Source: Patescibacteria group bacterium (GTDB lineage Bacteria > Patescibacteriota > Minisyncoccia > JACQLN01). Taken from it: a DNA stretch of 64,000 nt. The stretch spans positions 84,713 through 148,712 of the forward strand of contig JBBTRR010000006.1 of NCBI GenBank assembly GCA_038065095.1, read 5' to 3'. Positions 1,111-34,984 of this stretch are shown here, piece after piece. Position 1 is the stretch's first letter, and every line of letters starts with the position of its first letter. The notes beneath the pieces were generated by a model. That model did no database searches, was not told the DNA's origin, and saw only the letters and a program-made list of their open reading frames with translations. Both the position numbers and the translations under genes were made by a program.

Positions 1111-1114
1111 ATAT

Positions 1115-1945: not shown

Positions 1946-1969
1946 TGTTATTTAAACCAGTTTAGCGAA

Positions 1970-1996: not shown

Positions 1997-2076
1997 CTTG
2001 ATTGACTTATAGCTATAGATATGTTACTATTAAACTATCGTAGTACCTAACAAAAACACAAAAAAAGGCGGCCCAT

Positions 2077-2304: not shown

Positions 2305-2340
2305 CCCCACCCCCCGACCAAATGGTCGGGGATTTTTTTT
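2305..2340 (+). terminator. Rho-independent terminator
   Basis: ccccgaccaaatggtcgggg stem-loop followed by tttttttt. Confidence 0.7.
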
Positions 2341-2428
2341 CTTGTTGACGATTTACCCTATAAATAATACTTTGTAACAGTTCAAAATAAGCTGTCCTTT
2401 TACAAACCTTTCTCGAGGAGAGTGCTCA

Positions 2429-2755
2429 ATGGCAATTATTGCGCAAGAAATGTTACAAGAAAAAAAACGCGAAAGGATTATGGCTATAGGCCTTTGTGCT
2501 GGATTATGGTTACTAGTAACATTTTTGGTTTACCATAACTTTGAAAACTTTAATCTTGATTCGGGTATTATCTTAATCTTGGCAACTTTGTATGTATATA
2601 TGAAATGCTACGATCTGTATAAAAAACCTGCAAAACTTGTGGCGTTACACGACTGTTCCGTAATGGGAGAAAAATTCCATATGGAAATCGGAAATGCTAA
2701 AGATCGTTGGAATTTCTGCCCGTGGTGTAGTGGAAAAATAACAATTGAAGAATGA
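2429..2755 (+). CDS. Hypothetical membrane protein with C-terminal zinc-ribbon-like Cys pairs (108 aa)
   Basis: Hydrophobic segment GLCAGLWLLVTFLVY; CSVMG...CPWCSG Cys pairs; followed by terminator. Confidence 0.4.
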   Translation: MAIIAQEMLQEKKRERIMAIGLCAGLWLLVTFLVYHNFENFNLDSGIILILATLYVYMKCYDLYKKPAKLVALHDCSVMGEKFHMEIGNAKDRWNFCPWCSGKITIEE

Positions 2756-2761
2756 TTTATG

Positions 2762-2795
2762 ATCCCCCGACCAAACGGTCGGGGATTTTATTTTA
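2762..2795 (+). terminator. Rho-independent terminator
   Basis: cccccgaccaaacggtcgggg hairpin + T-run; near-identical to terminator at 2305-2340. Confidence 0.65.
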
Positions 2796-2867
2796 TAAAG
2801 CCTTGTTTGACTAAAGAAGCATTAAACTGTAGCGTTATATAAAGTTCTTTCAAAAAAGGGGTGTGCT

Positions 2868-3098
2868 ATGCAGAAAAAAGAATTGCATACATTGTGCCGC
2901 TGTAGACACGCTATTGTGCCAAGCTTTTGCCGTTTTTGTAATAAGCAAATTTATATATTACAACCATTTTATAAAATACCTTGGTATATAGCTGTATACT
3001 TCTATGGGGGAATAATATCTTATCAAGACTTTTGTTCCGATCATCACTGCAAAGAATGCCACAATAAAAAAAATAGATCAACTCGGCCACTGCCCTAA
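2868..3098 (+). CDS. Hypothetical Cys-rich small protein (76 aa)
   Basis: ORF with multiple Cys pairs; low support. Confidence 0.2.
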   Translation: MQKKELHTLCRCRHAIVPSFCRFCNKQIYILQPFYKIPWYIAVYFYGGIISYQDFCSDHHCKECHNKKNRSTRPLP

Positions 3099-3243
3099 AT
3101 GCCAAGCTTTTGTAGTAGAAAAAAAGCTCAAAAAAACAAAATTGGTAATATGCCTGCGATAAAAATATATCTAACCACAAATCCCCAATAACTGGGGATT
3201 TTTTAATGTTTATCTATGAGCATAGTGAATAGCTATAAACATT

Positions 3244-3355
3244 AACCCCGTAAAAACTACTTAATTAAATAATTAAGTGCATATAAAAAGCCGTGGGCGA
3301 TTTCGCTGATAAAAATTTATTATTAAATATCCACGTTTGAGTTTTTGTACGGGGT
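3244..3355. repeat. Palindromic element related to the CCCCGTTAGA family (copy D) upstream of corA
   Basis: Terminal inverted repeats aaccccgtaaaaac / gtttttgtacggggt; internal ttaattaaataattaa palindrome; TIR start accccgt- matches copies A-C. Confidence 0.5.
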
Positions 3356-3361
3356 ATTTCT

Positions 3362-3372
3362 TGTTATAATCT
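3362..3372 (+). promoter_or_regulatory. Candidate extended -10 promoter for corA
   Basis: ttgttataat (TGnTATAAT-like) about 45 nt upstream of corA ATG. Confidence 0.3.
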
Positions 3373-3415
3373 AGTTATCTAAAAACTAATGAAGCTAACA
3401 CTTAAAAGCTATTAA

Positions 3416-4327
3416 ATGACTACTATAAAATCTCCCAATGTAACTTGGTTAGACATTAAAAATCCTTCACCTAAGGAACTGCGGTTTTTGGCCCAAAATT
3501 ATAATATCCATCCATTAATTATAAACGGGTTAGAAAAACCAACTATTCGTTCGCAAGCCGAAGACTATAATGGCTATATTTATTTAGTTTTACACTTCCC
3601 TATCTTTAATCCACAAAAACAAGTTTCAGAACCTGTAGAAATAGATTTTATAATTACGCCCGACACCTTAATCTCTGTGCGCTACGAAAACATAGAACCT
3701 TTGGATGAATTTTTAGAAAAGTGTAAATCATATAATGGTCATATAAAAAAAGAAGCTATGTCGCGTGGCGCTATATATTTTTTTTATTACTTGATCAAAG
3801 AAATATATGCTTTTTCTTTGCGCCAACTAGACCATATGGACGAAAATATAGATAAAATAGAAGAAGCTATATTTTCTGGCCATCATAAAGAAATGCTTTT
3901 AGCGCTTTCACTGGCCCGAAGCGATGTTTTAAATTTTTTGCGCACACTACGCCCACAAGGTACTGTTTTAGAAAGCTTACTAGCCCGAAGTGATTCTTTT
4001 GAACAAAAAGCTCGGCCATATTTAATTGACCTTTTGGGCGAACATCACCAAGTTATAAACCAAGCCGAAAACAACTGCGAAAGTATCGAAGGGTTACAAA
4101 CAACTAATTCTGCATTATTGGAACACAAAACAAATGAGGTTATGAAAGTTCTTACCATAATAACTTTCACCATTTTACCTCTTACGCTTATAGCAAACAT
4201 ATTTGGAATGTCTAGTAAAAACATCCCCCTAGTTGACCACCCACACTTTTTCAAGATAATGTTAATGGCGATGGCTACTACAGTGGCAGTTTCGTTTTCT
4301 ATTTTTAAATATAAAAAGTGGCTTTGA
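3416..4327 (+). CDS. corA: CorA-family magnesium/cobalt transporter
   Basis: 303 aa; two C-terminal TM helices with GMS motif (IFGMSSKN, variant of CorA GMN loop); typical CorA size and layout. Confidence 0.7.
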   Translation: MTTIKSPNVTWLDIKNPSPKELRFLAQNYNIHPLIINGLEKPTIRSQAEDYNGYIYLVLHFPIFNPQKQVSEPVEIDFIITPDTLISVRYENIEPLDEFLEKCKSYNGHIKKEAMSRGAIYFFYYLIKEIYAFSLRQLDHMDENIDKIEEAIFSGHHKEMLLALSLARSDVLNFLRTLRPQGTVLESLLARSDSFEQKARPYLIDLLGEHHQVINQAENNCESIEGLQTTNSALLEHKTNEVMKVLTIITFTILPLTLIANIFGMSSKNIPLVDHPHFFKIMLMAMATTVAVSFSIFKYKKWL

Positions 4328-4410
4328 GTTAGCTTCACTAGCTTTCAGCTTCGTTAGCTGGTTAGGTATAATCTCCTAAAAAGCTAAGGAAGCTAAAGAA
4401 GCTAAAAGCA
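4328..4410. repeat. PAL repeat (agctaacgaagct family), copy 1
   Basis: Long imperfect hairpin: tagctttcagcttcgttagct ... agctaaggaagctaaagaagcta; arms are reverse complements. Confidence 0.7.
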
Positions 4411-4412
4411 TA

Positions 4413-5807
4413 ATGCGTATATACAACACCCTTACCAGTAAAAAAGATGATTTAAAAATCCCGCCATCTGGCGAGATCAATTTATTTGTATGTGGCCCAA
4501 CTGTTTATGATTATAGTCATATCGGCCACGCCCGCACTTATATATTTTTTGATGCTTTAGTTAAGTTTATGCGTAAATATTTGAGTATAAAAATAAATTA
4601 CTTACAGAACATCACCAATATAGACGATAAAATAATAAATCGCTCCGCCGAAGAAAATAAAAATCCGCAAGAGCTGGCGGATTTTTTTGAAAAAGAATAT
4701 ATAACGGATATGAGCTCTCTTGGGGTAAGTGCTGTTAACACTTATGCTCCAGCCACAAAATATATTCCCGAAATAATTTCGCAAGTAGAGCGTTTAATTA
4801 AAAAAGGTTTTGCCTATGTGTCTGGCCCCTCGACTACGCTCGGGACAAGCAGTGTTTATTTTAATGTAAGAAAATTTCCAGAATATGGAAAGCTATCACA
4901 CCAAAAACTTGCGGATTTAAAAGAAGGAGTAAGAATTGATGTTGAGGTTGGTAAAAAATTCTTTGCCGACTTTGTTTTATGGAAAGTTGCTAAACCGAAT
5001 GAACCAACTTGGGATTCGCCTTGGGGCAAAGGCCGCCCTGGTTGGCACATAGAAGATACAGCTATAACCGAAAAACATTTCGGCTTGCGTTACAATATTC
5101 ATGGTGGCGGATTAGATTTAATTTTTCCTCACCACGAAGCCGAAATTGCCCAAATGGAAGCGATATCGGGCTTAAGCCCTTTAGCCGAAGTTTGGATTCA
5201 CACTGGAATGCTTTTGGTTGATGGCGAAAAAATGTCTAAAAGTTTGGGTAATTTTATAACCATACGAGAATTTATTAAAGAAAATTCACCACAAATCTTG
5301 CGTTATATGGTTTTATCTCAACACTACCGCACAGGTTTGGATTTTTCCAAAAAGACAGTTCAAATGGCAAGTTCTTCTATAAATAGAATTGCAGATTTTA
5401 AAATTCGCTTAAAAAGCATTAACGAGCAGTCTTCTAGTTTTCCTTGGGAAGATTTTGAAAAAACATTTTGGCACGAACTGGCCGACGACTTTAACACACC
5501 AAAAGCCCTAGCTTCTTTATTTGAACTTATTACAGAAACCAACAAACTAATTGATTCACACAACTTATCCCACAGCGATGCACAGAAAATCGTTGACTTT
5601 ATAGACAGGGTAAACGATATTTTAAACATACTACCCAAAGAAGAATCCATACCTGCAGAAATTACCGCCTTAGTAGCTGATCGTGAAAAAGCTCGCGCCA
5701 GTAAAGATTTTGAACTATCGGATAAACTTCGCAATCAAATAAAAGAATTAAACTGGGAAGTGGAAGATACTCCCCGTGGACCCAAAATATCAAAAATTAA
5801 AAACTAA
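4413..5807 (+). CDS. cysS: Cysteine--tRNA ligase
   Basis: 464 aa; HIGH motif (SHIGHARTY), KMSKS motif, class I aaRS CysRS layout. Confidence 0.9.
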   Translation: MRIYNTLTSKKDDLKIPPSGEINLFVCGPTVYDYSHIGHARTYIFFDALVKFMRKYLSIKINYLQNITNIDDKIINRSAEENKNPQELADFFEKEYITDMSSLGVSAVNTYAPATKYIPEIISQVERLIKKGFAYVSGPSTTLGTSSVYFNVRKFPEYGKLSHQKLADLKEGVRIDVEVGKKFFADFVLWKVAKPNEPTWDSPWGKGRPGWHIEDTAITEKHFGLRYNIHGGGLDLIFPHHEAEIAQMEAISGLSPLAEVWIHTGMLLVDGEKMSKSLGNFITIREFIKENSPQILRYMVLSQHYRTGLDFSKKTVQMASSSINRIADFKIRLKSINEQSSSFPWEDFEKTFWHELADDFNTPKALASLFELITETNKLIDSHNLSHSDAQKIVDFIDRVNDILNILPKEESIPAEITALVADREKARASKDFELSDKLRNQIKELNWEVEDTPRGPKISKIKN

Positions 5808-5875: not shown

Positions 5876-7255
5876 ATGGCTTTTGACTCAATTACAAAAA
5901 CCGACATCAACACAGTTTCTATTGATAAACTCCCACCGCAATCCATAGAAGCCGAGGAATCGGTTTTAGGCGCTTTGTTAATGGACAAAGACGCTATTAT
6001 TCGTGTAGCGGATATTTTGCATCCAGAAGATTTTTATAAACGGTCTCATAATCTTATATATAACGCGATACTATTGTTATATGAAAAATCAGAACCAGTT
6101 GATGTTTTAAGTTTATCTAACCGCCTAAAAGAAGCCGGTCAACTTGAAAGCGTGGGCGGAACATCTTATTTAGCGGGCTTGGTTAATTCTGTGCCAACAG
6201 CTTCTAATGTTTTGCACTATGCCAAAATTGTTAGGCATAAAAAAATACTCCGCGATCTTTTATCGGCTTCACAAGATATTGCCCGATTAGGCTGGCAAGA
6301 AAACCAAGATATAGAACTTGTTTTAGACGAAGCCGAAAAAAGAATTTTTTCTATTGCGGAAAGATCTTTAAAACAAGATTTTATGCCTATTAGATCTGCA
6401 CTAGAAGATGCCTTTGAAAGAATAGATAAACTTCATAAGGGCGATGGCGCTTTGCGTGGAGTGCCTACTGGTTTTACCGATTTAGACCACTATTTAGCTG
6501 GCTTACAAAAATCAGATCTAGTTATTTTAGCAGCTCGCCCATCTTTAGGAAAAACTTCGCTGGCCTTAAATATTGCTAGTAATGTAGCCATAAAAGAAAA
6601 AACTCCTGTTGGTATTTTTTCTTTGGAAATGTCTAAGGAACAACTTGTAGATAGAATGTTAGCTTCGGAAGCCGGTGTAGATTTGTGGAGACTTCGCACT
6701 GGCCGATTAAGTATGGACGGCGAAGACAGTGATTTTTCTAGAATCCAAGAAGCTATGGGAATTTTAGCTGAAGCGCCTATTTTTATAGATGATGCCGCTT
6801 CCAGCAACATTATTCAAATGCGTACTATGGCCCGCAGATTGCAAGCTGAACATGGTTTAGGTTTAATTGTGGTTGATTACTTACAGTTGATGGAAGGCCG
6901 CAATAATAATGAAAGTCGCACACAAGAGATTAGCGAAATTTCACGCTCACTTAAAAATTTAGCCCGTGAACTTAATGTTCCGGTTTTGGCTTTATCTCAG
7001 CTTTCCCGTGCAGTAGAAACCAGAAGCCCCCAAATACCAAGGTTATCTGACTTGCGCGAATCGGGCTCTATAGAACAAGATGCCGATGTAGTTTTATTTA
7101 TTTATCGCGAAGATAGAGAAAAACCAAACACCGAAAAAAAGAATGTAGCCGAAATTCATATTGCCAAACACAGAAACGGTCCCACTGGTAAAGTAGATTT
7201 ATATTTTGACGCCGATAGAGTTCAGTTTAGAGATTTAGCTAAAAACATAGAATAG
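5876..7255 (+). CDS. dnaB: Replicative DNA helicase DnaB
   Basis: 459 aa; Walker A ARPSLGKTS, DnaB N-domain, RecA-like C-domain motifs. Confidence 0.9.
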   Translation: MAFDSITKTDINTVSIDKLPPQSIEAEESVLGALLMDKDAIIRVADILHPEDFYKRSHNLIYNAILLLYEKSEPVDVLSLSNRLKEAGQLESVGGTSYLAGLVNSVPTASNVLHYAKIVRHKKILRDLLSASQDIARLGWQENQDIELVLDEAEKRIFSIAERSLKQDFMPIRSALEDAFERIDKLHKGDGALRGVPTGFTDLDHYLAGLQKSDLVILAARPSLGKTSLALNIASNVAIKEKTPVGIFSLEMSKEQLVDRMLASEAGVDLWRLRTGRLSMDGEDSDFSRIQEAMGILAEAPIFIDDAASSNIIQMRTMARRLQAEHGLGLIVVDYLQLMEGRNNNESRTQEISEISRSLKNLARELNVPVLALSQLSRAVETRSPQIPRLSDLRESGSIEQDADVVLFIYREDREKPNTEKKNVAEIHIAKHRNGPTGKVDLYFDADRVQFRDLAKNIE

Positions 7256-21158: not shown

Positions 21159-21809
21159 TTATCTATCCCAATTCCACTCTTTAAACCCTTTTCCTGCCTC
21201 TCCTTTTTCCCACTTAGCCCTTTCAATTATCTGCCCATTTTCTAACCGTACCGATCCTTGTTCTTTTAAACTTTTTCTAAACCAATCTTCTTCATCTTTG
21301 CGCCGATCTTTCTGGCGTTTTAGTTTATCTGCTACCGATAATATTCCTTCGCTTCCCATTTTATCTGTTAAAGATTTTTGCAGTTTATCTAGTAAATAAT
21401 TTAATTCTTTGGCACGAAGTTTTAGTTGTAAACAAATGGGCAAAATGGGATTAAGGGGATAAAACAATATTTTCTCCCATTCCCTTTTCTCCCATTTCCC
21501 CCCTTCCACCCCCTTTGCGGCGTAAACGCCGCGTAGTATATCCGTAAAATCTTCTTCTAGTTCTGCGTTAGACGCAACAGCGTAACCCAAAAATTGATAA
21601 TATTCGCGGGTTGAATTTCTTTTCCAACCCTCGGTTATATTTTGTTTTGTTGAACGAGCTGATCTTTCCATTTGATCTGAAAGGGCTAAAAGGGTTTTTG
21701 AATGGGAGAAAGTTTTTACATAATCTGCTAAAGCCATCTGCAACTCTTCAGCTTTTTTATAAACCAGCAACTCTCTATACCCATATAAACTTTTAGCTTG
21801 TTTGATCAT
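21159..21809 (-). CDS. Four-helix-bundle protein (TIGR02436 / 23S rRNA-IVS protein / Avd-like family) with C-terminal extension
   Basis: YRELLVYKKAEEL...DQMERSARSTKQNITEGWKR.S..E...FL..A..S..ELE pattern characteristic of the family. Confidence 0.6.
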   Translation of the reverse strand: MIKQAKSLYGYRELLVYKKAEELQMALADYVKTFSHSKTLLALSDQMERSARSTKQNITEGWKRNSTREYYQFLGYAVASNAELEEDFTDILRGVYAAKGVEGGKWEKREWEKILFYPLNPILPICLQLKLRAKELNYLLDKLQKSLTDKMGSEGILSVADKLKRQKDRRKDEEDWFRKSLKEQGSVRLENGQIIERAKWEKGEAGKGFKEWNWDR

Positions 21810-22014: not shown

Positions 22015-23496
22015 TTATGGAGTTTCCGCTGGAGGTGTTACCGGTTCCTCGACCACAGCGACAGGTTCTTCTGCAGGCGGTGTTACCACAGGCTCTTCAA
22101 CCAGAGGCAGGATGGATTCCTCGGTTGTTGGAGGAATAATCTCTTCCACTGGGGATGCAACTGCTTCTGCGAGCGGAGCTACTGGTTCAATGGGTGTAAC
22201 AGGATTAATGGGTTCCAAAGGGGTTTCTGAAGGAGGTTGTGATGGGGTCAAAGGAGCAACTTCCTCTGCTCCTTTCTTCCTTGCAATAACCATCCAATCA
22301 AAAGTTCCGCCTTCATCAAAAGCATTTATTTCTTTAACTTCAAAACCAAATCTGGTTTTTTGGCTAACATATAACGGGCCGTTCAAACGGCTGGTTGGTG
22401 TTAAAATAACTTTTATATTTTCGGTTTCGGAAATAAGCGAAACAAAACTTTCATCAAATTTTATTTTAATTCCAGCCGATGCCAATCCAGTTTGAGCATC
22501 GACTGGTAACGTAACTAAAGTGGCCGATCCCGAAGCTATAACTTCATCTCGGCTGGATGTTATGCCAAAAGTTTTAAAATTAACATCGGTTTCGGTTTCG
22601 TCTTTCTTTATTAACTTGGTGGTTTCAGCTAAAGCCGCATTAGCCCAATCGCCTATTGTTGACGCAATCGAAGCAAGCGTGGATTTGGCAACCGTGATTG
22701 CATTATTAATAAAACCCGAAGGCACAGGAGCTTCGCTCCCACTTGGGAGCGAAGCTCCCAAGTTAACGGCCTCTAAATTGGCAACCCTAGTTTTAATATC
22801 TTCTATTTGAACTTGTTGCGCCTTCACACCAGCTAATATAAACGAAGAGAGTTTGTATATATCTACGCCTTTACCATCTATACTTAGAACTTCGGCTGGA
22901 GCTTCTTCTGCTATTAAACCCAATCTCTTGGGATTAGCAGAGTCTTCTATACCATAGTGATAAGTGGCCACATTAGCAGATTTAATTTTTTCCAGAATGT
23001 TTTTTTCTTCTTCGCCTGTTAAATATTGTATATCTATTTTGGAACTACGCGTAGATATATTTACAAAAGCCGTGGCAGCGATATCTCCCACAACCGAAAG
23101 TTTATAGCTTGGAGTAGATGTACCGATACCAACACGGCCAGCCGATGTAACCACAAAAGAAGTTTCTTCGGAATCATTAACCTGCAGTTTCGCGGTGGGC
23201 GTGGTAGTACCGATGCCGACGTTGCCACTCATATTTATATAAGTGTTATGCGCAAAAATATCGTTGCCCACAAAGTTGTGCGTATCTTCCACTTCAATAT
23301 CGTAAACTTGTTCGCGGCCAACGGGTTTAATAGCCACAATTTCGTCCCAAAACACGTCGCTCTCTGTTACATCAACACGACCAGATAAACCACCATTTTT
23401 ATGCAAATCTAAAACACCTTTTTTGGGTACGGCAATAAACTCGCCGACTTTAATCTGCGATATTTTTTTCCATTTAGTTTTTTCTTTGATTGGCAT
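22015..23496 (-). CDS. Intein C-terminal half (Int-C, ~84 aa) fused to C-extein: GIGTTTP-repeat / S74-chaperone-like / Pro-Glu-rich tail protein
   Basis: N-terminus KWKKISQIKVGEFIAVPKKG...DVFWDEIVAIKPVGREQVYDIEVEDTHNFVGNDIFAHN|T matches mini-intein blocks F/G (cf. Ssp DnaB mini-intein DIYWDSIVSI...VFDLTVPGPHNFVANDIIVHNS); extein continues NVGIGTTTPTAKL repeats seen in the giant ORF. Confidence 0.7.
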   Translation of the reverse strand: MPIKEKTKWKKISQIKVGEFIAVPKKGVLDLHKNGGLSGRVDVTESDVFWDEIVAIKPVGREQVYDIEVEDTHNFVGNDIFAHNTYINMSGNVGIGTTTPTAKLQVNDSEETSFVVTSAGRVGIGTSTPSYKLSVVGDIAATAFVNISTRSSKIDIQYLTGEEEKNILEKIKSANVATYHYGIEDSANPKRLGLIAEEAPAEVLSIDGKGVDIYKLSSFILAGVKAQQVQIEDIKTRVANLEAVNLGASLPSGSEAPVPSGFINNAITVAKSTLASIASTIGDWANAALAETTKLIKKDETETDVNFKTFGITSSRDEVIASGSATLVTLPVDAQTGLASAGIKIKFDESFVSLISETENIKVILTPTSRLNGPLYVSQKTRFGFEVKEINAFDEGGTFDWMVIARKKGAEEVAPLTPSQPPSETPLEPINPVTPIEPVAPLAEAVASPVEEIIPPTTEESILPLVEEPVVTPPAEEPVAVVEEPVTPPAETP

Positions 23497-23533
23497 ATTT
23501 TTTATAATTATTTTTTTCTTTTTGCTAGTCTTT

Positions 23534-23577
23534 AAGGTCAGACCTTTTTCTTAACGGGCATATTAAGGTCAGACCTT
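23534..23577. repeat. Paired palindrome aaggtcagacctt-N18-aaggtcagacctt (cassette boundary, copy 1)
   Basis: Two 13-bp near-perfect palindromes flanking tttcttaacgggcatatt; near-identical copy at 26270-26313. Confidence 0.7.
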
Positions 23578-23647
23578 GGAACTTAATATTTTTATTTTTC
23601 GCCCCATTGGGACGCGAATCTCGGCAGAAATATCGGCACTGGGGCGT

Positions 23648-24085
23648 TCAACGTCGGGACTGGGACGGCTCATACCACTTCTGCCACGACTTTTCCAAAC
23701 GAAATATCTTTGTTCTAGCTTCGCTGTAACGCCGAACCAAATCATCAACTAACTCCACATCAATTTTGTCGCCATAAATTCCCTTGGCCTGTTCCAAATA
23801 TACCACCATTTTATTGCACCCCACCAAAATCCGCTCTAGCATACTGATAGAATTTTCGTGATTACCAAAACGAGTGGAATGAGCTGAAGCCAAAGCCATC
23901 GGCAAACCCAAAGCACACTTCACTAATTCTTCCACAAATGGGCATTTAATTTTAGCCAGTCCAGCGCTAATATCTTTAACCACGATCACCGAGGCTTCCA
24001 AAGTTTTTTGATACACTTCCAAATCCCGGAAGCTCCTGACCGGTTTTTTTACAGAATAAGTTTTTTGAGAATTATAGTTTATCAT
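23648..24085 (-). CDS. Four-helix-bundle protein (TIGR02436 / Avd-like family)
   Basis: 145 aa; FRDLEVYQKTLEASV... signature start of the family; higher GC than surroundings. Confidence 0.6.
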   Translation of the reverse strand: MINYNSQKTYSVKKPVRSFRDLEVYQKTLEASVIVVKDISAGLAKIKCPFVEELVKCALGLPMALASAHSTRFGNHENSISMLERILVGCNKMVVYLEQAKGIYGDKIDVELVDDLVRRYSEARTKIFRLEKSWQKWYEPSQSRR

Positions 24086-24099
24086 TTTTTTCGCATTAT

Positions 24100-25518
24100 C
24101 TAAACTATCTTTAATTTATTTTCTCTCGGAATCTCAAACGCCATACCCTTATTTTTTAAATAAACTTTTTTCTTTTTGCGATCCGATATTTTTTTAACCA
24201 CATGCAACGGATAAAATTCAAAATAATCTTTTTCATCAAACCAGCCGCACTTAAATTCATATAATCGCAAACCGGTCAGACGCGACAAGGCCAAAGCATA
24301 CCACTCCAATTGTTCAATTGGCTTTTCTTTGGCGGCGTTGGGTTTGTAATCAAGAATATGAATCTGGCCGTTTCTAATTTGAAGCAAGTCTATGTGGCCA
24401 GTGAGCAATCTTGGCACCCCAGCGCCGACTTTGTCTTCTGCCGGCCTTGTGGCCGTCTCATTGCCGATGTTTTCCGAATCTGTCCCTTGTTGCTCAACGC
24501 CAAGTTCAACCTCGGGAACGGGACGATCCCAAATCTTAAAATTCAACACATTTTCCATATGTTCAATATCTTCTTTTCTAATATACACCGGCACTTCCGA
24601 AGCTACAGTAACCGAATCATTGGCCACCATAAACATCTGCAAGCGGTCGTGCCTAGCTTTATTATCGCTCACGCCCTGCAAAACAAACTCGGCCAAGCGG
24701 TTGGCATAATTTTGTTTTGAATGCACAATCATTTGAGCTTTGCTAAATTTAGTTTTAACTTCCGACATCCGCCCGCCTTCCTGAAAATATTGATGCGGGG
24801 TTTCAGCCGAAACCGCGTCTAAATAATCTTTTAATGGTTCAAAATTTCGGTTTTTAAATTCCTGCAAAGCTAATGCTATTTTGGGCCGATGGTAACGAAA
24901 GCGATACAACTGCCGATGCGCCATGGTTACGGTTTCTATAGTTTTTTCAGGCGAACACATTTTTGTGGCGTAAGGCCTCAATCTGGAATAACGGCACAAC
25001 TCGGCATATTCTTCTACCCAGCCCGATAACGTAGAGGCGCCGGGGTTAACGCCAAATTTTTGGTTTAACGCGCGGCAAGTAGCTTCCAAAGTGTGGCCGA
25101 GATTGTAAATAGTTAAACCCGCCATAATTACATTCACCGGAAACTTTTTTCCTTTTACAAATTGAGCGGTGAACACACGAGAACAAGCGTGACACAAATA
25201 TAATTGAACGGTTTCAAATTTCTTTTTTCTAACCCCGCGTTTTACAAAATCCGTAGATGAACAATAAGGGCAACGCTCGGCGATTCGGGATTCCCCCATC
25301 CCAGTGCCGAGCGCCCCGCTCCCGATATTGCCTTTATGTTGAATTGCAGAAACTTCCGATGTTGCTTCTGAAAAAACTTCGGCATCGGGTCGTGCCAAAA
25401 GGCCTGCCTTTTCAATATCGGCACAGGGGCGTTCAACCTCGGGAGCGGGTCGACTAAATTTATTCATAATTTTTCCTAATAAGTTTTTCATGACAAGTAA
25501 ATTAACAATCATTGACAC
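24100..25518 (-). CDS. Zinc-ribbon + PD-(D/E)XK-like nuclease (candidate free-standing homing endonuclease of the cassette)
   Basis: 472 aa; CPYCSS...CHACS zinc ribbon; C-terminal GHIDLLQIRNGQIHILDYKP...EQLEWYAL consistent with D..(D/E)xK nuclease core; ~50% GC versus ~35% flanks; truncated duplicate of its 5' end (MSRPSPDVERPSADI) at 23571-23673. Confidence 0.5.
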   Translation of the reverse strand: MSMIVNLLVMKNLLGKIMNKFSRPAPEVERPCADIEKAGLLARPDAEVFSEATSEVSAIQHKGNIGSGALGTGMGESRIAERCPYCSSTDFVKRGVRKKKFETVQLYLCHACSRVFTAQFVKGKKFPVNVIMAGLTIYNLGHTLEATCRALNQKFGVNPGASTLSGWVEEYAELCRYSRLRPYATKMCSPEKTIETVTMAHRQLYRFRYHRPKIALALQEFKNRNFEPLKDYLDAVSAETPHQYFQEGGRMSEVKTKFSKAQMIVHSKQNYANRLAEFVLQGVSDNKARHDRLQMFMVANDSVTVASEVPVYIRKEDIEHMENVLNFKIWDRPVPEVELGVEQQGTDSENIGNETATRPAEDKVGAGVPRLLTGHIDLLQIRNGQIHILDYKPNAAKEKPIEQLEWYALALSRLTGLRLYEFKCGWFDEKDYFEFYPLHVVKKISDRKKKKVYLKNKGMAFEIPRENKLKIV

Positions 25519-25564
25519 AACTTACATATTTGACATTACCGTTAAATAGATTATCATTGTATTT

Positions 25565-25819
25565 ATGAAAATGGCTACCAAAAACAACATTGGCGGAGCT
25601 ATCGTTATCAAGCAGAAAGTTAGGTTTGGCAAACCCTGTATTAAGGGAACTAGAATTGCTATTGCCGATATCTTGAACCTTTTGAAAGCCGGTTATGCTA
25701 TTGAGGAAATTCCAGAACAATACCCCAACATAACCACCGAAGATGTGCGCTTGGCTTTGCGCTACGCCGCGAGGACAATGGCCAAAGAAGAAATTCTGGA
25801 AGTTGCTCCCGTGCAGTAG
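25565..25819 (+). CDS. DUF433-family protein (putative antitoxin-like)
   Basis: 84 aa; GKPCIKGTRIAIADILNLLKAGYAIEEIPEQYPNITTEDVRLALRYA matches DUF433 signature. Confidence 0.7.
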   Translation: MKMATKNNIGGAIVIKQKVRFGKPCIKGTRIAIADILNLLKAGYAIEEIPEQYPNITTEDVRLALRYAARTMAKEEILEVAPVQ

Positions 25820-25843
25820 AGTCAAACCGATTCTATTTACTAT

Positions 25844-26203
25844 ATGCTCAAAATTTTTGCCGACGAGTGCATTAACACCGACCTTGTTTTGACTATTAAG
25901 AATAGTGGTTTTTATGTTCTCTCCACCAAAGAAGCTGGGCTTACTGGCGCCAGTGATGAAGAAGTTTTTGATTTTGCTATCGAAAAAGACTTGGTTATTC
26001 TTACTGCCGATCGCGGTTTCGGCGATATCTTTCGTTTCAATATTGGAAATAGCCGTGGTGTCATTGTTGTTCTGGTAGATCAGATGACGCGAGAAGAAAT
26101 TATTAATGTAACTGTGGGGTTTTTTAATTTTATTAAGAAATCTGGAATTGAAGGCAAACTGGCTATTATCGGCAAAAACAAAATCAGAATTGTTGGACGA
26201 TAA
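25844..26203 (+). CDS. DUF5615-family (PIN-like) protein, putative toxin partner of DUF433
   Basis: 119 aa; MLKIFADECI...GASDEEVFDFAIEKDLVILTADRGF typical of DUF5615; adjacent to DUF433 gene. Confidence 0.65.
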   Translation: MLKIFADECINTDLVLTIKNSGFYVLSTKEAGLTGASDEEVFDFAIEKDLVILTADRGFGDIFRFNIGNSRGVIVVLVDQMTREEIINVTVGFFNFIKKSGIEGKLAIIGKNKIRIVGR

Positions 26204-26269
26204 ATATTGGAAATATATTTGGGGTTTACCCACGACCTCCGCCGGAAACGGTGGGGGGTCTATTTTTTC

Positions 26270-26313
26270 AAGGTCAAACCTTTTACTTAACGGGCATATT
26301 AAGGTTTGACCTT
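26270..26313. repeat. Paired palindrome aaggtcaaacctt-N18-aaggtttgacctt (cassette boundary, copy 2)
   Basis: Same architecture and spacer (ttaacgggcatatt) as 23534-23577, direct orientation. Confidence 0.7.
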
Positions 26314-26461
26314 TTTCTATACCTTTTTGGTCTTGTTTCATATCACGACTAAGCGTGATCAAAATCTCACGAGTTTCGGAAATATAAGCACTACCACCGC
26401 CAGCCGTGATACAGATTCCACTGTTTTTTAACTTAATTTTATAAAAAATATTTTTCATATT

Positions 26462-29400
26462 CTAAGAATTATCACTGACAATTTCGGCAAAGTCCCCGCG
26501 CGACAAAAAGACCAGTTTCACAAGGTAAGGATGATTCGCGGTGGTTCTGATTTTTCGCCCCGACTTTGTTACAAGTTCAAAAACTTCCTGCACGCCCATA
26601 TCCATTAAACCATTTACTCGGGCATATTTTACGCAACCAGTTTTTTCATCCAAAGACATCACTTCATCGCCCGCCAAAATATCTTTAATCGCGACTTCAT
26701 CGTATTCAAATTCCCCCTCAAGGTCAGACCTTGGGAATTTTGGTTTTAAGGTCTGACCTTTTTCTTTCGGATGTTTGCGTCTCCTGCGAAGGCGTGTATC
26801 CCCAGTTACGCACTGCGCCACAATGTTCACATTGCCCCCTAAACTGGCGTTACCAAGCGTTATATTGCCCGTAGCATCAACCACCATAGAAGGCGCGGCG
26901 GCGGGGGCGTTCGTTACATTTAAAACATTATTGATATTCTGAATACCCTTAACCAAAATCGGCACCAAGCCAGTAGTGTTTAACGACTTCATTCCATCTG
27001 CATCGGTAGCGATAAGTTTAGGAATTAAAGCTTCTACTTCTTGAGCAATAAAACCAAGACTCTTTGTTGTGCCATCATTTTCATAATTCCAATTGTAAAG
27101 AACTGGTCTTAAGTCCATTACCGTAGCTAGTCCATAATTTATGTCTTCAATATTTTTCTTTAATCTAACATCCGAAGAACAAGCTATTGTTCCGCCAGTG
27201 GCTAAAGTACAACCTGTGGTGTTCACATCAGTGAACTTTGCGATGGTTACTCCGGTACCAGTGCCTTTAACTTCTAGTGGAGCACCGGGATTCGTCGTCC
27301 CGATGCCGACGTTGCCGTTTTGGTCTATCCTCATCGCTGCATTCTGCACACCGTCTTTGTATGTTAAAAATCTAAAGACGCCAGAATCCGCATCAGCCAC
27401 ACTTGGCTGATTTGCTTCAATCTTTGCTATTAAATTCGCCCCGTTATAGAACCTGATGGTACCCAAATCTTCATCGGCGTTATTCCTCGAGCCTTTTAAT
27501 TGTAAAATTGAAGCGCCTAATCCGCTTCTTTCGATGGTGATGCCCTGTGCGTCCGTGGCTCCATAAATATGCAATTGGTTTCCCGGCCCCGTCGTCCCGA
27601 TGCCGACGCTTCCATCTTCTACCCACAGAGTGCTTCCGCTTGCTCCCCTCACCTCCAGCGTGGATGTGGCTATCAGCGAAGATGTGGTAGTCGTGCCCAT
27701 AGCATACAAGCCATCCATAGTTACATTGCCGTCCACTGCCAAAAGATTCCCGGGTGTCGTCGTCCCGATGCCGACGTTGCCGTTTACAACTAACTTCTGG
27801 TCAAAAGTCGCATCCCCCACATCAACATAAAGACCTCCTGAAGTGATATTTAAACCTCCTGTGCCTAAAGAAAGACCGCCATCAAATGTAGAAGTTGCTG
27901 TTCCGCTATTCTTTATTATTGTAGAAACATTAAGTATCGGAGTAGAAAATATGGTTGAAGCATTCAAATTGGGTAGAGTAGATGTAGCAGAACTAGCAGA
28001 AGTTAATTTTCCGCTAAATAATGAATCACCCGTAACATTTAAAGCATTGGCTGATAATCCTCCTGTGGCAAATATACCTCCTCCCGCAAATGTAGATGTA
28101 GCCGTGCCAGAGTTTTTAAGTATTGTAGAAACTTCTAAGGTTGGGGTTGTTAGTATAGTGGAAACATTTAATTGAGGGGCGGTTGATGTGGAAGCTCCCG
28201 TTAGAGTGAGTTTGCCACTGGATAAAATATCTCCTCCTGTAATGGTAAGCCCTGTGGCTGAACTTAGTCCGCCAGTAGTTAGTATGTTAATACCTCCAGT
28301 AAATGTAGAGGTGGCAGATTCTGTTACATCTAACGCTCCAGCGAATGTGTTGTTAGTGGTAGATGTGGCAGTAAGAAAAGAAATTTTTGTTTGACCTTCC
28401 ACGGTTAGTTCACCAATATTGGCATTGCCTTGAACGGATAAGAGACTGCCGGGTGTAGAAGTTCCAAATCCAACTTTTTCTTTAAATACTGCCAGCACAT
28501 TGCCACCAGTGTAAGCCGAGCTTCTGACTTCCAATGTAGAGGTGGCAATGAGAGAAGAGGAGGTGGAGGTGGCTTGGGTGTAGAGAGAATCAAAGTTTCC
28601 AGAACCGTTCACATCCAGGAGATTCCCGGGTGTCGTCGTCCCGATGCCGACGTTGCCGTTTACAACTAACTTCTGGTCAAAAGTCGCATCCCCCACATCA
28701 ACATAAAGACCTCCTGAAGTGATATTTAAACCTCCTGTGCCTAAAGAAAGACCGCCATCAAATGTAGAAGTTGCTGTTCCGCTATTCTTTATTATTGTAG
28801 AAACATTAAGTATCGGAGTAGAAAATATGGTTGAAGCATTCAAATTGGGTAGAGTAGATGTAGCAGAACTAGCAGAAGTTAATTTTCCGCTAAATAATGA
28901 ATCACCCGTAACATTTAAAGCATTGGCTGATAATCCTCCTGTGGCAAATATACCTCCTCCCGCAAATGTAGATGTAGCCGTGCCAGAGTTTTTAAGTATT
29001 GTAGAAACTTCTAAGGTTGGGGTTGTTAGTATAGTGGAAACATTTAATTGAGGGGCGGTTGATGTGGAAGCTCCCGTTAGAGTGAGTTTGCCACTGGATA
29101 AAATATCTCCTCCTGTAATGGTAAGCCCTGTGGCTGAACTTAGTCCGCCAGTAGTTAGTATGTTAATACCTCCAGTAAATGTAGAGGTGGCAGATTCTGT
29201 TACATCTAACGCTCCAGCGAATGTGTTGTTAGTGGTAGATGTGGCAGTAAGAAAAGAAATTTTTGTTTGACCTTCCACGGTTAGTTCACCAATATTGGCA
29301 TTGCCTTGAACGGATAAGAGACTGCCGGGTGTAGAAGTTCCAAATCCAACTTTTTCTTTAAATACTGCCAGCACATTGCCACCAGTGTAAGCCGAGCTTC

Positions 29401-32400
29401 TGACTTCCAATGTAGAGGTGGCAATGAGAGAAGAGGAGGTGGAGGTGGCTTGGGTGTAGAGAGAATCAAAGTTTCCAGAACCGTTCACATCCAGGAGATT
29501 ACCGGGCGTTGTCGTCCCGATGCCGACGTTGCCGTTAGGATCAAAAGTCAGTCTGGCGTTTCCTCCTATAGGGTCTCCTCCTTTAGTAGTGCTTTGATAT
29601 ATAATAAAATCCCCATATTGCTGATAACTCATAGCGAAACCATAATTTCTCACAGCAGCAGTTGTGTCACTGCTTTTCATTCTAAATGTTGGAGAAATAC
29701 CAGTTGATAAACCACTAATAGTTAACCCTTTTGTATTGGTTCCAGTTGCGACTTCAAGAGTATCTGCTGGTGCCGTCGTGCCGATGCCGACGTTGCCGCC
29801 AGAACTTATACGCATAGCTTCAGCAGTGCTGGCTCCGTTTGCTCTAGTAGCAAAAGCCAAATATCCAGCATAATTGTTATCTGTACCGTTTTCTTTAGCT
29901 CCTAATATATAGGCAAAAGGAGTATCTGTTGTTCCGGTATACTTACCTCCAAAAATGATTTTACCACCACTATCAATATGCATTGATCCATCCTCCTGAA
30001 TAGATAATTGTCCAGTAAAAGGATTGTTTGAATTCCCGCTATATGAAGGACCAGTAATTTCTAATACAGTTGCTCTAACTGTAGATGGCGTGGATGTACC
30101 GACCTGTAAAAGCGTCCCCGGGTCCGTCGTCCCGATGCCGAGATTACCGTTAGAATCTATTCTCATTCTTTCAGTCCAGCTGGTCAGCCGATCGTTGGCG
30201 CTGCCAAAGGAGAGACTGCCGTCAGTGGAAGAGGCATACCAGTGTTTTAGATCAGCGGCGGCATCAGTGTCAGACAGCATTAGTTGGGCAGAGCCAGTGG
30301 AAGCAAGTTGCAATAATTTAGCGGGAGTGGTGGTGCCAAGGCCCACATTGCCCGATATTATGACATTGCCGTCAGCCACTGTGGTGGTGTCGTAAGAACT
30401 GCCCACAGCTAACCCGCCCGAGACTGAAAGTTTGGCTCCAGGTGAAATCTCGCCTATGCCGACATTGCCTTCGGTAACTGCAAGGTAGGTGTTGCCATAG
30501 ACGCTTAGGTAGCCAGATGGGTTATACATACCAATGCCAACAGAGCCTCCGTTGGTTACTACAAAGTTGTATGTGCCTACAGAGTTAACTACGCTTAATA
30601 AATCCTTTGTTGAGTTTGAATTGTCGTTAGATATGGTGAGCGTGCTTGATGGAGTTGAACTTCCCATGCCAACCCTGCCATTCCATGTAACCAAATCATT
30701 ACCCGTAGTTCCCCTAACCTCTAACGTGCTTGTTGCAATTAGTGATGATGTTGTAGTTGTACCCATTGCGTAGAAATTATCTACCGATGCATCACCATCT
30801 ACTGCGAGTTTAGTACCTGGGGTGGTTGTGCCAATGCCGAAGTTGCCGAATATCCAAGAATTGTTGGTGCTGGTTGAAGTGAAGTAGTCGGCTGATACGA
30901 AGCCGTCAAATATGCCTGCGCCTTGGACTGCGAGTCTGGCGCCTGGAGTTGTTGTTCCAAGTCCAATCGCTCCGTTAAAGAAAGAAGCCGTGGTTGATGT
31001 GCTTGTTAGGAAAGCAGTTTTGAGTTGCCCTTCTACAGTAAGCTCTCCAATGTTGGCATTGCCGTGGACAGAGAGGAGGCTTCCTGGAGTGGATGTTCCA
31101 AATCCAACTTTATCTTTGAATACTGCAAATACATTTCCACCAGTGTAAGCCGAGCTTCGGACTTCTAAGGTGGAGGTGGCGATGAGAGATGATGTAGTTG
31201 TAGTAGCTTGGATGTATTGATTACCTTTAATCGTGGAATCTCCTTCAACTGCAAATCTAGTGCCGGGAGTGGTGGTGCCAATTCCCATTGATCCCATTAT
31301 CCAACTTGTTAGAGATGATGTGGATGTGAAGTAATTAGCCGAGACGAAGCCATCAAATATGCCTGCGCCTTGGACTGCGAGTTTAGCACCGGGAGTAGTG
31401 GTTCCAAATCCAACACTTCCTGTAAAAGATGAATTAGCTAAAGATGTAAGAGTGAGTTTGCCACTTGATAAAATGTCTCCCCCCGTAATGGTGAGCCCCA
31501 TTGAACTCGCCAAACCAGCAGCTTCAATACCTCCATCAGCTGTTGTTGTGGCGTTGTTTTTAAATTTTAAAGTCCCGGTGAATATTGAATTGCCTTCCAC
31601 CACCAAATTGTTTTGTATGTTGGCGTCGCCGTGGACAGACAGAAGTGTGCCGGGAGTATCTGTGGCTATGCCAACTCTGCCATCCCACACCATAAAATCT
31701 TTGCCTGATTGTCCGCGAACTTCTAGTGTGGATGTGGCGATGAGAGATGAGGTTGTTGTAGTGGCTTGAATATATAAACCTCCTTTGAATGAACCGCTAC
31801 CCTTTGCGTCAAATGCGACTCCAGGTGTGGTTGTGCCAATGCCGAAGTTGCCGAATATCCAGCTGGAGTTTGTGGATGTGCTGGTGAAATAGTCGGCTGA
31901 TACGAATCCTTCTATAATAGAAGCACCTTTTACTGCGAGTTTAGAGCCAGGCGTAGTAGTGCCCAAACCCAAAGCCCCATTGAACCAGTTAGTGTTAGTG
32001 CTGGTTGATGTGAAGTAATCAGCGCTGACAAATCCTTCCGATAATACCCCCCCTTTGATTCCCATTTGTGCCCCCGGGGTTGTGCTTCCAATTCCCATTT
32101 GACCCATTATCCAACTTGTTAGAGATGATGTAGATGTAAAGTAATTAGCACTGACGAAACCGTCAAATATTCCTGAACCTTTAACACCTAGGGCTGATCC
32201 GGGTGTTGATGTGCCCAGACCCAGATTAAGGCCAAACGATGTGGCGCCCGAGATAGTTAAGTCTCCAGTAATGGTGGTGTTGCCTGTTATGGATGTTGTG
32301 CCTGTGATGTTAGAAGCTCCTATTACTGATAGGCCATTTGATAGGATTGATATTCCTCTGCCAAATTTAGCTTCGTATGCTGTAACTTCGAATGGGCCTT

Positions 32401-33907: not shown

Positions 33908-33945
33908 AAGGTCAGACCTTGGGGCTGCTCTTAAGGTCAGACCTT
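33908..33945. repeat. Paired palindrome aaggtcagacctt-N12-aaggtcagacctt in giant-gene/MerR divergent promoter region
   Basis: Two perfect copies of the 13-bp palindrome. Confidence 0.7.
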
Positions 33946-34087: not shown

Positions 34088-34312
34088 ATGTCTTTTGGTA
34101 GAAAATATCTAAGCATTAAACAAGCCGCCGCGGTTATTGGCGTAACCCCGCTAACTTTGCGCAACTGGGACAGGGACGGCAAACTTAGCCCATATCGCAA
34201 TCCTATAAACAATTACCGCTATTATCGTGTAGATCAAATAGAAGCATTCTTGCGAGCTATGGAAGGCTCTAGAGAAAAAGGAAATAGAAAAATAAGGTTT
34301 ATGGACATCTAA
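34088..34312 (+). CDS. MerR/excisionase-type HTH DNA-binding protein (74 aa), divergent from giant gene
   Basis: LSIKQAAAVIGVTPLTLRNWDRDGKLSPYR...YRYY matches MerR-type HTH (HTH_17) pattern. Confidence 0.6.
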   Translation: MSFGRKYLSIKQAAAVIGVTPLTLRNWDRDGKLSPYRNPINNYRYYRVDQIEAFLRAMEGSREKGNRKIRFMDI

Positions 34313-34401: not shown

Positions 34402-34749
34402 CTAACTAACTTTATTTAATATCGCAGAAAATATATTTCTTAACTCTATACTCTCTTGAAATAAATTTTGAATTGCTTCTGAATAATCTTTGTTTGATTC
34501 CTCTAGTAACTCTAACCAGTATGATGTTTCTTTAGATTCTTTTCTAGCAATTTTTATTTTATATGCTAAATCTTTTTTACTTAGCTTTTCATTAGCTTCC
34601 CTATAGTTAGCTCCTACTGAACCTGCAGAACGAACACATTGTCTAACGAGTTCATTGTTTATAGAATTTTTTGGTAATTTTTGACAAAGCTTAATTACTT
34701 CTCTTGTGAATTCTAAAGTTCTTTGTTCTAAATCGCGAAATTTTTTCAT
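34402..34749 (-). CDS. Four-helix-bundle protein (TIGR02436 / Avd-like family)
   Basis: MKKFRDLEQRTLEFTREVIKLCQKLP...VRQCVRSAGSVGANYREA...KDLAYKIKIARKESKETSYWLELL; ORF-track start at 34836 overlaps tRNA so internal Met at 34749 used. Confidence 0.6.
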   Translation of the reverse strand: MKKFRDLEQRTLEFTREVIKLCQKLPKNSINNELVRQCVRSAGSVGANYREANEKLSKKDLAYKIKIARKESKETSYWLELLEESNKDYSEAIQNLFQESIELRNIFSAILNKVS

Positions 34750-34800
34750 AACCCTTTTTGTGTTTTGTTTGTAATTTGTTTTTTGTGCTTTGAATATTTG

Positions 34801-34984
34801 TGGACGGTACAGGATTTGAACCTGTGACCTTTGCAACTTGCCCCGTTAGATATTTTTGTGCGCGATGCAGGATTTGAACCTGCGACCTTTGCAATGTGAA
34901 TGCACTGCTCTACCACTGAGCTAATCGCGCATGATATCTAACGGGGTGAAAATGCAGCGTTCTACCATTGAACTAATCGCCCTC
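34801..34984 (-). other. Interrupted tRNA-Val-like gene: 5' half (34948-34984) and 3' half (34801-34840) separated by a CCCCGTTAGA-TIR element (34841-34947, copy C) that carries the intact tRNA-Val
   Basis: 5' half GGGCGATTAGTTCAATGGTAGAACGCTGCATTTTCAC and 3' half CAAGTTGCAAAGGTCACAGGTTCAAATCCTGTACCGTCCA are ~85% identical to the corresponding halves of the nested tRNA-Val; element termini ccccgttagatat / atatctaacgggg. Confidence 0.55.
34859..34930 (-). tRNA. tRNA-Val (anticodon CAC), nested inside a palindromic element
   Basis: GCGCGATTAGCTCAGTGGTAGAGCAGTGCATTCACATTGCAAAGGTCGCAGGTTCAAATCCTGCATCGCGCA; clean cloverleaf, anticodon loop tTCACAt. Confidence 0.75.

Follow-up and report, generated by a model that had tools for sequence, protein, structure and literature searches.

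Results

A giant fibre gene with a tandem module

We analysed a stretch of 64,000 nucleotides (nt) of Patescibacteria DNA (contig JBBTRR010000006.1 of assembly GCA_038065095.1, referred to as the window throughout), which is matched by a SPAdes-style short-read metagenome contig of 117 kb from groundwater of the Hainich aquifer (well H52, 0.1 µm fraction; source sample Hain_H52_01um_R3, ENA analysis ERZ1292617). Our subject is a giant fibre gene of the window, encoding 2416 amino acids (aa), in which a module of 876 nt stands twice in tandem (Table 1). The identical protein sequence is deposited as MEK7629544.1, a 'tail fiber domain-containing protein' of a Patescibacteria metagenome-assembled genome (MAG). 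According to its translation, the protein begins with a helix-turn-helix (HTH)-like N-terminus (aa 7–52), continues with one transmembrane helix (aa ~179–206) and then consists of a fibre part of ~2,000 aa, rich in Thr, Gly and Ser. This part holds 23 copies of a motif of the GxGTTxPxxxLxV type (G[IFLVM][GA]..P-type pattern), mostly followed by xxxL.V, and the protein ends with a Peptidase_S74 domain and the N-terminal half of an intein.

Profile and sequence matches agree with the surface-fibre type of gene that the first-pass annotation, made from the sequence without database searches, had proposed. The match to Peptidase_S74 lies clearly above its cut-off (Table 1), and a catalytic-type SDxxxK motif, as defined for the S74 chaperone (PMC10769870), is present as SSDVRLK at aa 2179–2185. 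PHROG tail-fibre families match the protein with E = 3e-30 and 3e-25. A phmmer search against the PDB returned (i) the Bdellovibrio MAT fibre Bd2133 (8ond_A, E = 8.7e-6, over aa 1146–1352), where the similarity falls on the beta-helix part of Bd2133, and (ii) more weakly, 8oml (E = 3e-3) and the long-tail-fibre tip 6f45 (E = 4e-3). The motif of the giant protein matches the 'capping loops' that lie at the edges of trimeric beta-helix sub-domains in Bdellovibrio fibres and follow the consensus V-G-G/N-pi-x-x-P-x-x-x-L along the fibre (PMC10769870); by homology, the motif would therefore mark sub-domain boundaries in the giant protein. On the basis of these matches, the gene is predicted to encode a membrane-anchored, tail-fibre-like surface protein related to the Bdellovibrio MAT fibres. 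A trimeric beta-helical fibre fold and display at the cell surface may be expected from the same relationship, and length may have an effect on function.

Table 1 Features of the giant fibre gene and of the adjoining insert (positions in the window; empty cells, no entry)
Feature	Position	Strand	Basis
Giant fibre gene, 2416 aa	26462..33712	-	ORF list, translation, Pfam, motif list
Older diverged partial copy of the first part of the module, 78 % nt identity	30990..31216	-	Repeat family D2
23-mer copy with 3 mismatches, NGNLGIGTTDPG; core acts as left crossover of the 615-nt indel	30126..30148	-	
23-mer copy with 1 mismatch, GGNVGIGTTAPA	29775..29797	-	Motif list
615-nt segment (205 codons), present in the window and missing in strain L002, core TCGGCATCGGGACGAC at both ends	29511..30125	-	BLASTN, joint alignment
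Motif copy M3, entry into copy A, encodes NGNVGIGTTTPGN	29496..29536	-	Three-way alignment
Module copy A, proximal in the gene, 876 nt, aa 1406–1697	28620..29495	-	Exact match to 27744–28619
Motif copy M2, duplication junction, hybrid	28620..28660	-	Three-way alignment
Module copy B, distal in the gene, 876 nt, aa 1698–1989	27744..28619	-	Exact match to copy A
Motif copy M1, exit from copy B into the distal cassette	27744..27784	-	Three-way and joint alignments
23-mer copy with 2 mismatches, DGSVGIGTTGPG; restart point of three sister scaffolds past their N gap	27591..27613	-	
Exact 23-mer copy NGNVGIGTTNPG, aa ~2132–2143, just ahead of the S74 domain	27294..27316	-	Motif list
Distal cassette including the S74 domain	26894..27734	-	No nt similarity to the matching ~1,160 nt of L002
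Peptidase_S74 intramolecular-chaperone domain, aa 2180–2233	27014..27175	-	PF13884, E = 3e-14, 53.5 bits against a cut-off of 22
Putative N-intein half, aa 2301–2416, blocks A (CVTGDT) and B (TTANH), runs to the stop of the gene	26465..26812	-	PF14890 positions 9–71 of 155; DnaB intein PDB matches
Insert between the intein halves, 2.9 kb	23497–26464		
DUF433 / PIN_10 (DUF5615) toxin-antitoxin-like pair in the insert	25565–25819, 25844–26203	+	Pfam
472-aa zinc-ribbon and PD-(D/E)XK nuclease ORF	24100–25518	-	PDDEXK_1, E = 8.7e-6, 26.3 bits against a cut-off of 22
145-aa ORF in the insert	23648–24085	-	
Putative C-intein half, first 84 aa of ORF 22015–23496, blocks F and G, ends ...VGNDIFAHN	23245..23496	-	PF14890 positions 72–155 of 155, E = 2e-13

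The duplication and its junction

The module is too long for Tandem Repeats Finder, whose longest period is 500, and therefore remained unlisted by that tool; it emerged from a self-comparison of the window shifted by 876 nt. Positions 27744–28624 are identical to 28620–29500 over 881 unbroken nt, and the whole interval 27744–29500 has a perfect period of 876 nt. As sequence, the perfect 2 x 876-bp tandem duplication placed by the first-pass annotation at 27748–29499 is thus confirmed, with boundaries displaced by at most 4 nt. The duplication is in frame (876 = 3 x 292), and aa 1406–1697 are identical to aa 1698–1989. Identity ends sharply at both ends, exactly one period apart and at copies of the motif, a pattern that points to one act of duplication and away from patchy gene conversion.

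Three copies of the motif, termed M3, M2 and M1 in the direction of the gene, mark the entry into the proximal module, the junction between the modules and the exit from the distal one. M1 and M3 share an exact core of 26 nt and align over 41 nt with three mismatches. In a three-way alignment, M3 differs from both M1 and M2 at positions 29501, 29507 and 29510. M2 is a hybrid: read on the + strand, its left flank up to 28624 corresponds to the context of M3, while the sequence from 28620 rightwards corresponds to the context of M1, the two contexts overlapping by the 5 nt AGATT.

From this arrangement, we consider it probable that the 292-residue module was duplicated recently and in frame by out-of-register pairing of the motif. 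Two capping-loop coding motifs (...AACGGCAACGTCGGCATCGGGACGAC...), 876 nt apart, would have paired out of register, either in an unequal homologous exchange or during replication slippage, and the outcome would be a hybrid motif at the junction together with a second copy of all sequence between the two motifs. A structural sub-domain begins at the motif; for this reason the reading frame is kept, and the product should fold into a fibre of greater length. Tandem repeats are unstable, and repeats of ~0.9 kb recombine frequently; because two perfect repeats of 876 nt are a far better substrate than a core of 26 nt, ready expansion and contraction would be expected from now on.

Repetition at other scales surrounds this event. 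The module itself contains a nested sub-repeat of 68 aa (TGASTSTAPQLNVSTIL...GKL / TSASSATSTLPNLNASTIF...QKL; aa 1555–1690, window ~28640–29050, plus the copy 876 nt lower), which is present in two copies in the giant protein and in its homologues P0001 and P0003, and in one copy in P0002 and P0005 (alignment A1), so that length varies at this smaller scale too. The older partial copy of the first part of the module, at 78 % nt identity (Table 1), shows that the gene grew by earlier duplications.

Motif copies within the gene

We compared the motif copies of the gene at the level of their codons. The 23-mer GTCGTCCCGATGCCGACGTTGCC is present exactly at four sites (27294, 27759, 28635 and 29511), two of which are the duplicated pair, and inexactly at 29775 (one mismatch), 27591 (two) and 30126 (three); an eighth copy at 23204 (two mismatches) lies outside the giant open reading frame (ORF), in the downstream ORF 22015–23496. 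The earlier count of at least eight exact recurrences therefore reduces to four, while the recurrence as such lies far beyond chance: shuffled sequence gives no match to the 23-mer, and the probability of these codons for one GNVGIGT peptide is p = 8e-7 under the window's own codon usage. The motif codons GTC, ATC, GGG and ACG are rare in this genome of ~36 % GC. Codon-level identity extends over seven motif copies of the C-terminal half (aa 1192, 1309, 1397, 1689, 1981, 2037 and 2136). The 14 copies of the proximal half use other codons, and this half is colinear with that of the sister strain described below.

Comparison with a sister strain and more distant homologues

A sister-strain assembly from well H41 (L002), 97–98 % identical and with the same gene neighbourhood as the window, carries a single copy of the module, 94.6–95.3 % identical to that of the window. 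By BLASTN, the two genes are 98.0 % identical over gene nt 1–3587 and free of indels there. Between strains, each unit differs at 41–48 positions (4.7–5.4 %), compared to 0 differences between the two copies of the window, from which it follows that the duplication is much younger than the strain split, subject to the assembler's caveat on identity discussed below. The very recent origin put forward in the first-pass annotation is borne out by this comparison, and so is its proposal that motif copies serve as sites of rearrangement, for which the hybrid junction and two further joints now speak. At the first of these, L002 lacks the segment of 615 nt (Table 1) and switches from the upstream to the downstream context inside the 16-nt shared core TCGGCATCGGGACGAC, as seen in a joint alignment. 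At the second, the different distal cassette of L002 begins directly past the same core. All three mapped joints sit at canonical motif copies of the distal half, and module number differs between the strains (one in L002, two in the window). Recombination at the motif does reshape the giant gene. We propose that the gene would evolve as a string of cassettes with recombination-prone linkers between them, at which related strains gain or lose segments and swap the distal tip.

More distant proteins carry the module in different numbers and settings. P0003 has it once, at 86 % aa identity, in a protein that is otherwise 46–52 % identical; P0005 has it once at 60 %, and P0002 has two diverged copies at 43–45 %. 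In the DNA of P0003, the module is 77 % identical and only the downstream motif is near-canonical; at this divergence the exchange is old and uninformative on mechanism. Among 355 other loci with the motif, a few show similar repeats, such as a 582-nt tandem of 99.7 % identity whose units start at the motif (L111) and a locus with a similar repeat pattern (L183).

Copy number in the assemblies and alternative explanations

Two alternatives to the duplication as assembled concern the assembly itself. According to the first, the module is indeed duplicated, but the count of exactly two perfect copies reflects a convention of the assembler: the population would carry three or more copies, alleles with one, two and three copies side by side, or copies whose few differences were collapsed. 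According to the second, there is a single copy in the genome, and sequence common to the motif copies led the assembler along a chimeric path that appears as the junction. In three contigs, assembly gave one and the same two-copy protein. The following observations weigh against taking these contigs at face value. Four sister scaffolds of the same strain (L005 and L006 from well H51; L004 and L007 from well H52, L007 being the 0.2 µm fraction) carry gaps of 100 N at the repeat and offer no resolved sequence there: L005 and L006 contain gene nt 1–4267, 100 N and nt 6105–7251, breaking exactly 55 nt inside the repeat; L007 contains nt 1–5079, 100 N and nt 6105–7251; and L004 contains nt 1–5079, 100 N and nt 5901–7251, its two flanks overlapping by 55 nt. 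A further assembly of the strain, L003, has one module copy, at a k-mer coverage of 1.65 and with many homopolymer deletions. Of the loci fetched, none but the window and its twin L001 contain the junction-specific 25-mer GACACCCGGGAATCTCCTGGATGTG. Moreover, whether a tandem loop truly holds two units or more, the shortest path through it comes out as two, which makes 'exactly two' dependent on the assembly; a single graph edge supplies the sequence of both copies, so that the '100 % identity' is in part a property of the assembly as well.

The same scaffolds argue for the presence of the repeat. Their 55-nt overlaps imply a final k of 55 for the short-read graph assembly, and a break exactly 55 nt into the repeat is the expected behaviour of such a graph if the reads do contain the loop. 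With one copy in the genome, the graph would be linear and would assemble without breaks; the loop was therefore present in the reads of two wells. While the exact core of 26 nt could mislead stages of assembly at small k, every 55-mer of a de Bruijn contig occurs in the reads and the shared cores do not exceed 26 nt, so that no false edge arises at k = 55. L003, error-rich and of low coverage, may have missed the junction. L363 (contig_4645), whose contig name and indel errors point to a long-read assembly, runs past the first unit into more unit sequence and not into the downstream flank, although its end is noisy and not colinear (the unit offset jumps from 846 to ~158), which counts against leaning on it. 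Since the junction is also in frame and a clean hybrid, we regard a chimeric path in a one-copy genome as unlikely, despite the single copy of L003, the N gaps and the narrow distribution of the junction 25-mer. A convention of the assembler is a possibility to be taken more seriously, if a tentative one: SPAdes-style names and the position of the breaks identify a k-mer graph assembly, repeat-induced assembly errors are documented, and L003 shows one copy, yet L363 enters a second unit. Three contigs with the same two-copy protein speak against it, as does the 90 % cluster of the giant protein, which contains no clean version with one copy (2124 aa) or with three (2708 aa). In summary, the duplication exists, and copy-number variation within the population is suggested.

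Two further alternatives concern the origin and the role of the repeat. An old duplication held identical by ongoing gene conversion (concerted evolution) is improbable: the codon-level identity of the seven C-terminal-half motifs suggests some homogenisation or shared descent, but L002, P0003 and P0005 carry the module once, identity stops sharply one period apart, and the older internal copies at 78 % have escaped homogenisation. Least probable of all is a programmed switch for phase or antigenic variation, i.e., a contingency locus with a dedicated recombinase. General analogy with repeat-rich adhesins and a PD-(D/E)XK nuclease gene 1 kb downstream are all that point in this direction. In contrast, the unit length is divisible by three, which preserves the frame, Tandem Repeats Finder reported no short simple-sequence array in the gene, no invertase or integrase is found among the neighbouring genes with Pfam calls, and the nuclease lies inside a split intein, where it is better explained as a homing-type endonuclease. 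The likeness to phase-variable adhesins drawn in the first-pass annotation is thus not upheld.

For the preferred reading, recent duplication through out-of-register pairing of the motif, two points call for restraint. The apparent crossover comprises only 5 nt of identity (AGATT), 10 nt away from the 26-nt core, so that replication slippage is as possible as a classical RecA exchange; the junction fits an exchange that began in the core with mismatches repaired towards one parent, and it fits slippage equally well. The structural autonomy of the module, in turn, would follow from homology only: the module (aa 1406–1697) has no Pfam match and no PDB sequence match, and an AlphaFold2 monomer model from an alignment of 6 sequences is uninformative (mean predicted local distance difference test score, pLDDT, 44; predicted template modelling score, pTM, 0.22).

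The motif as a DNA word beyond the gene

We determined how widely the motif recurs as a DNA word, using loci from genomes (L008–L127), viruses (L128–L247 and L248–L362) and metagenomes (L365–L484). The exact 23-nt word GGCAACGTCGGCATCGGGACGAC, encoding GNVGIGTT, is present in at least 120 species-genome stretches of GTDB and in at least 120 viral contigs of IMG/VR, with up to 16 copies per locus. Carriers of the exact word include many Patescibacteria as well as Gammaproteobacteria, Acidobacteriota, Elusimicrobia, Omnitrophica, Planctomycetes, DPANN archaea and methanogens. Among the matches listed, GC lies below 0.45 in 44 of 120 genome loci and 67 of 120 viral loci. The consensus over 116 other loci reads GNVGIGTTSPGAKLxV, and the nucleotides that flank the word are not conserved, so that recent transfers of long segments do not account for its distribution. 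As the word is found family-wide, the dispersed exact repeats of the giant gene are local cases of it, and homogenisation inside the gene does not by itself account for them.

To quantify the use of synonymous codons, unbiased samples of every synonymous GNVGIGTT encoding were drawn, and expected values were derived from codon usage stratified by the GC content at third codon positions (GC3) of the flanks, for instances with clean flanks. The viral sample comprises 244 instances with 187 distinct encodings, and five of the instances are the exact word. Among its 203 clean-flank instances, the exact word was seen 3 times (0.008 expected) and encodings with at most two non-canonical codons 33 times (1.3 expected). 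In the metagenome sample of 198 instances, the exact word is the commonest version (31 instances, in 13 of 120 contigs); for its 162 clean-flank instances, the corresponding values are 27 (0.05 expected) and 58 (4.3 expected). GC3 of the viral motifs exceeds that of their flanks (0.39 compared to 0.26, p = 3e-9), and AAC, GTC, ATC and ACG are each enriched 1.7- to 3-fold relative to the same amino acids in the flanks.

We tentatively suggest, as a reading that may well prove wrong, that the word acts as a nucleotide-level recombination linker in tail-fibre-like genes of bacteria, archaea and viruses, whatever the genomic GC. Its conservation would then be kept by the recombination that it mediates, or would be selected for that recombination (second-order selection, concerted evolution or GC-biased conversion). 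The word could then be the point at which fibre modules multiply, drop out or move, whether inside one genome or from one genome to another, and the duplication of the window would be one fresh event of this kind. Selection on translation or on messenger RNA at the capping loop is a candidate alternative for the conservation of the word. In the searchable literature, we found nothing on the peptide string of the motif or on S74 and tail-fibre proteins in Patescibacteria (Candidate Phyla Radiation, CPR).

A split intein and its insert

The giant gene is, by its intein blocks, 'fractured' by a split intein. The N-intein half closes the giant ORF, and the C-intein half opens ORF 22015–23496, in which it is followed by Thr+1 and a GNVGIGTTTP motif (23203–23226) before the ORF continues to a second Peptidase_S74-like domain. 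This split-intein arrangement is kept in strain L002. The insert between the halves holds the 145-aa ORF, the toxin-antitoxin-like pair and the nuclease ORF 24100–25518, which is possibly a homing endonuclease. We also considered ORF 25502–26458 (318 aa, in the frame of the giant gene) as a read-through product; it has no family match and is probably spurious, since it lies antisense to the DUF433 and PIN_10 genes, two called genes with Pfam matches. An alternative genetic code as the cause of the stop after the N-intein was ruled out, as TGA, TAG and TAA all terminate long ORFs of the window.

Self-cleavage of the S74 domain at its Ser, if it proceeds as in relatives, would release everything C-terminal of aa ~2179 (window ~27158–27178). 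The released part would include the N-intein and any trans-spliced C-extein, which makes the role of the spliced part puzzling.

Fractured genes of this build were described by Dassa et al. 2009 (PMC2677866), and the present locus shares with them that intein blocks A and B end the upstream ORF, that blocks F and G with the +1 nucleophile open the downstream ORF and that a nuclease ORF lies between the intein halves. It differs in that the host gene is a structural fibre gene rather than one for an enzyme of DNA metabolism, in a CPR bacterium rather than a phage. Further, the insert also holds the PIN/DUF433 pair on the opposite strand and the 145-aa ORF, and splicing is predicted from sequence.

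Neighbourhood of the fibre locus

Paired palindromic boxes, AAGGTC[A/T]GACCTT with a spacing of 25–31 nt, occur at four sites of the window only (8 boxes compared to 0.07 expected): at 33908–33945, upstream of the giant gene; at 26720–26760, in frame within the N-intein part; at 26270–26313, just past the stop of the giant gene; and at 23534–23577, immediately ahead of the C-intein ORF. At the N-intein site, L002 carries a different insert. The boxes could be operators that co-regulate both halves of the gene, a small HTH_17/MerR gene being present at 34088–34312; alternatively, they could represent a mobile palindromic element of small size.

Genes of the 23S_rRNA_IVP family (PF05635, four-helix bundle) flank the fibre locus at 21159–21809 and 34402–34749, both on the - strand, and a gene of this family is also present past the homologous giant gene P0003 in another MAG (L364, 8662–9252). 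In this related MAG (GCA_030697855.1, JAUYOU010000050.1), the giant fibre paralogues P0007 and P0003 stand in tandem with a PemK toxin gene between them; fibre genes of these organisms may commonly be associated with toxin-antitoxin genes. A stretch of 43 nt at 34794–34836 is 86 % identical to the 3' half of tRNA-Val (34852–34894; tRNA-Val at 34858–34930), 58 nt away, and represents either the remnant of a tRNA or a second tRNA that escaped detection. Its position is ~1.1 kb beyond the start of the giant gene, near the edge of the fibre region of higher GC (0.42–0.47 compared to ~0.35).

Discussion

The duplication is a case of two known patterns, length-variable intragenic repeats and motif-mediated mosaicism of fibre genes. 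Length-variable surface proteins with intragenic repeats include the Alp/Rib/alpha-C family of streptococci and the FLO adhesins of yeast. The giant gene shares with these in-frame, head-to-tail and near-identical repeats, a copy number that differs between strains, and unequal recombination or slippage as the expected mechanism; it differs from them in having two copies of a long composite module of 876 nt and not an array, and it is not known to be linked to immune or host pressure. For mosaicism, the tail-fibre genes of T-even phages offer the comparison: work by Tetart et al. in 1998 reportedly described their mosaic evolution via recombination at short conserved motifs. Short conserved islands in otherwise diverged genes serve as crossovers in both systems, three of three joints lying at the motif core in the present gene. 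Here, however, the motif and the protein family are different ones, the gene is cellular, and the motif DNA is common to bacteria, archaea and viruses.

With regard to the protein, the closest known systems are the MAT fibres of Bdellovibrio bacteriovorus and the S74 phage tail fibres (Caulton et al. 2024, PMC10769870). Shared features are (i) a C-terminal Peptidase_S74 domain with an SDxxxK-type motif, (ii) a repeated capping-loop motif of the V-G-x-G-T-x-x-P-x-x-x-L type and (iii), for the MAT fibres, sequence similarity to the Bd2133 beta-helix and a conserved proximal but variable distal part. The giant protein is ~2.4 times longer than the MAT fibres, contains an exact module duplication, is encoded by a gene split by an intein and belongs to a Patescibacteria (CPR) cell. 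The anchoring differs as well: MAT fibres have a signal peptide and a ~130-aa beta-rich domain, the giant protein an HTH-like, presumably cytoplasmic N-terminus and one transmembrane helix. Trimeric fold and surface display are predicted features of the giant protein.

For databases, the locus calls for caution, as the deposited length of 2416 aa hinges on the assembler's walk through a loop. The synonymous-site conservation of the 23-mer across bacteria, archaea and viruses was unexpected; a further feature of the locus is the split-intein arrangement of a fibre gene. If the conservation of the motif is driven by recombination, it would explain the mosaicism of a widespread fibre family and suggest a rule for fibre engineering.

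Patescibacteria (CPR) are believed to spend their lives attached to other cells, and to our knowledge their attachment structures are almost unstudied. One of the largest genes of a CPR bacterium is, by its predicted product, a fibre of the tail-fibre/MAT type, and comparisons of natural strains within a single aquifer show how it changes: a short conserved motif is the place where modules gain a second copy, are lost or are exchanged. How long such fibres are and how far their tips vary in CPR populations can thereby be approached at this locus, in a way that is testable across 27.7–29.6 kb of the window.

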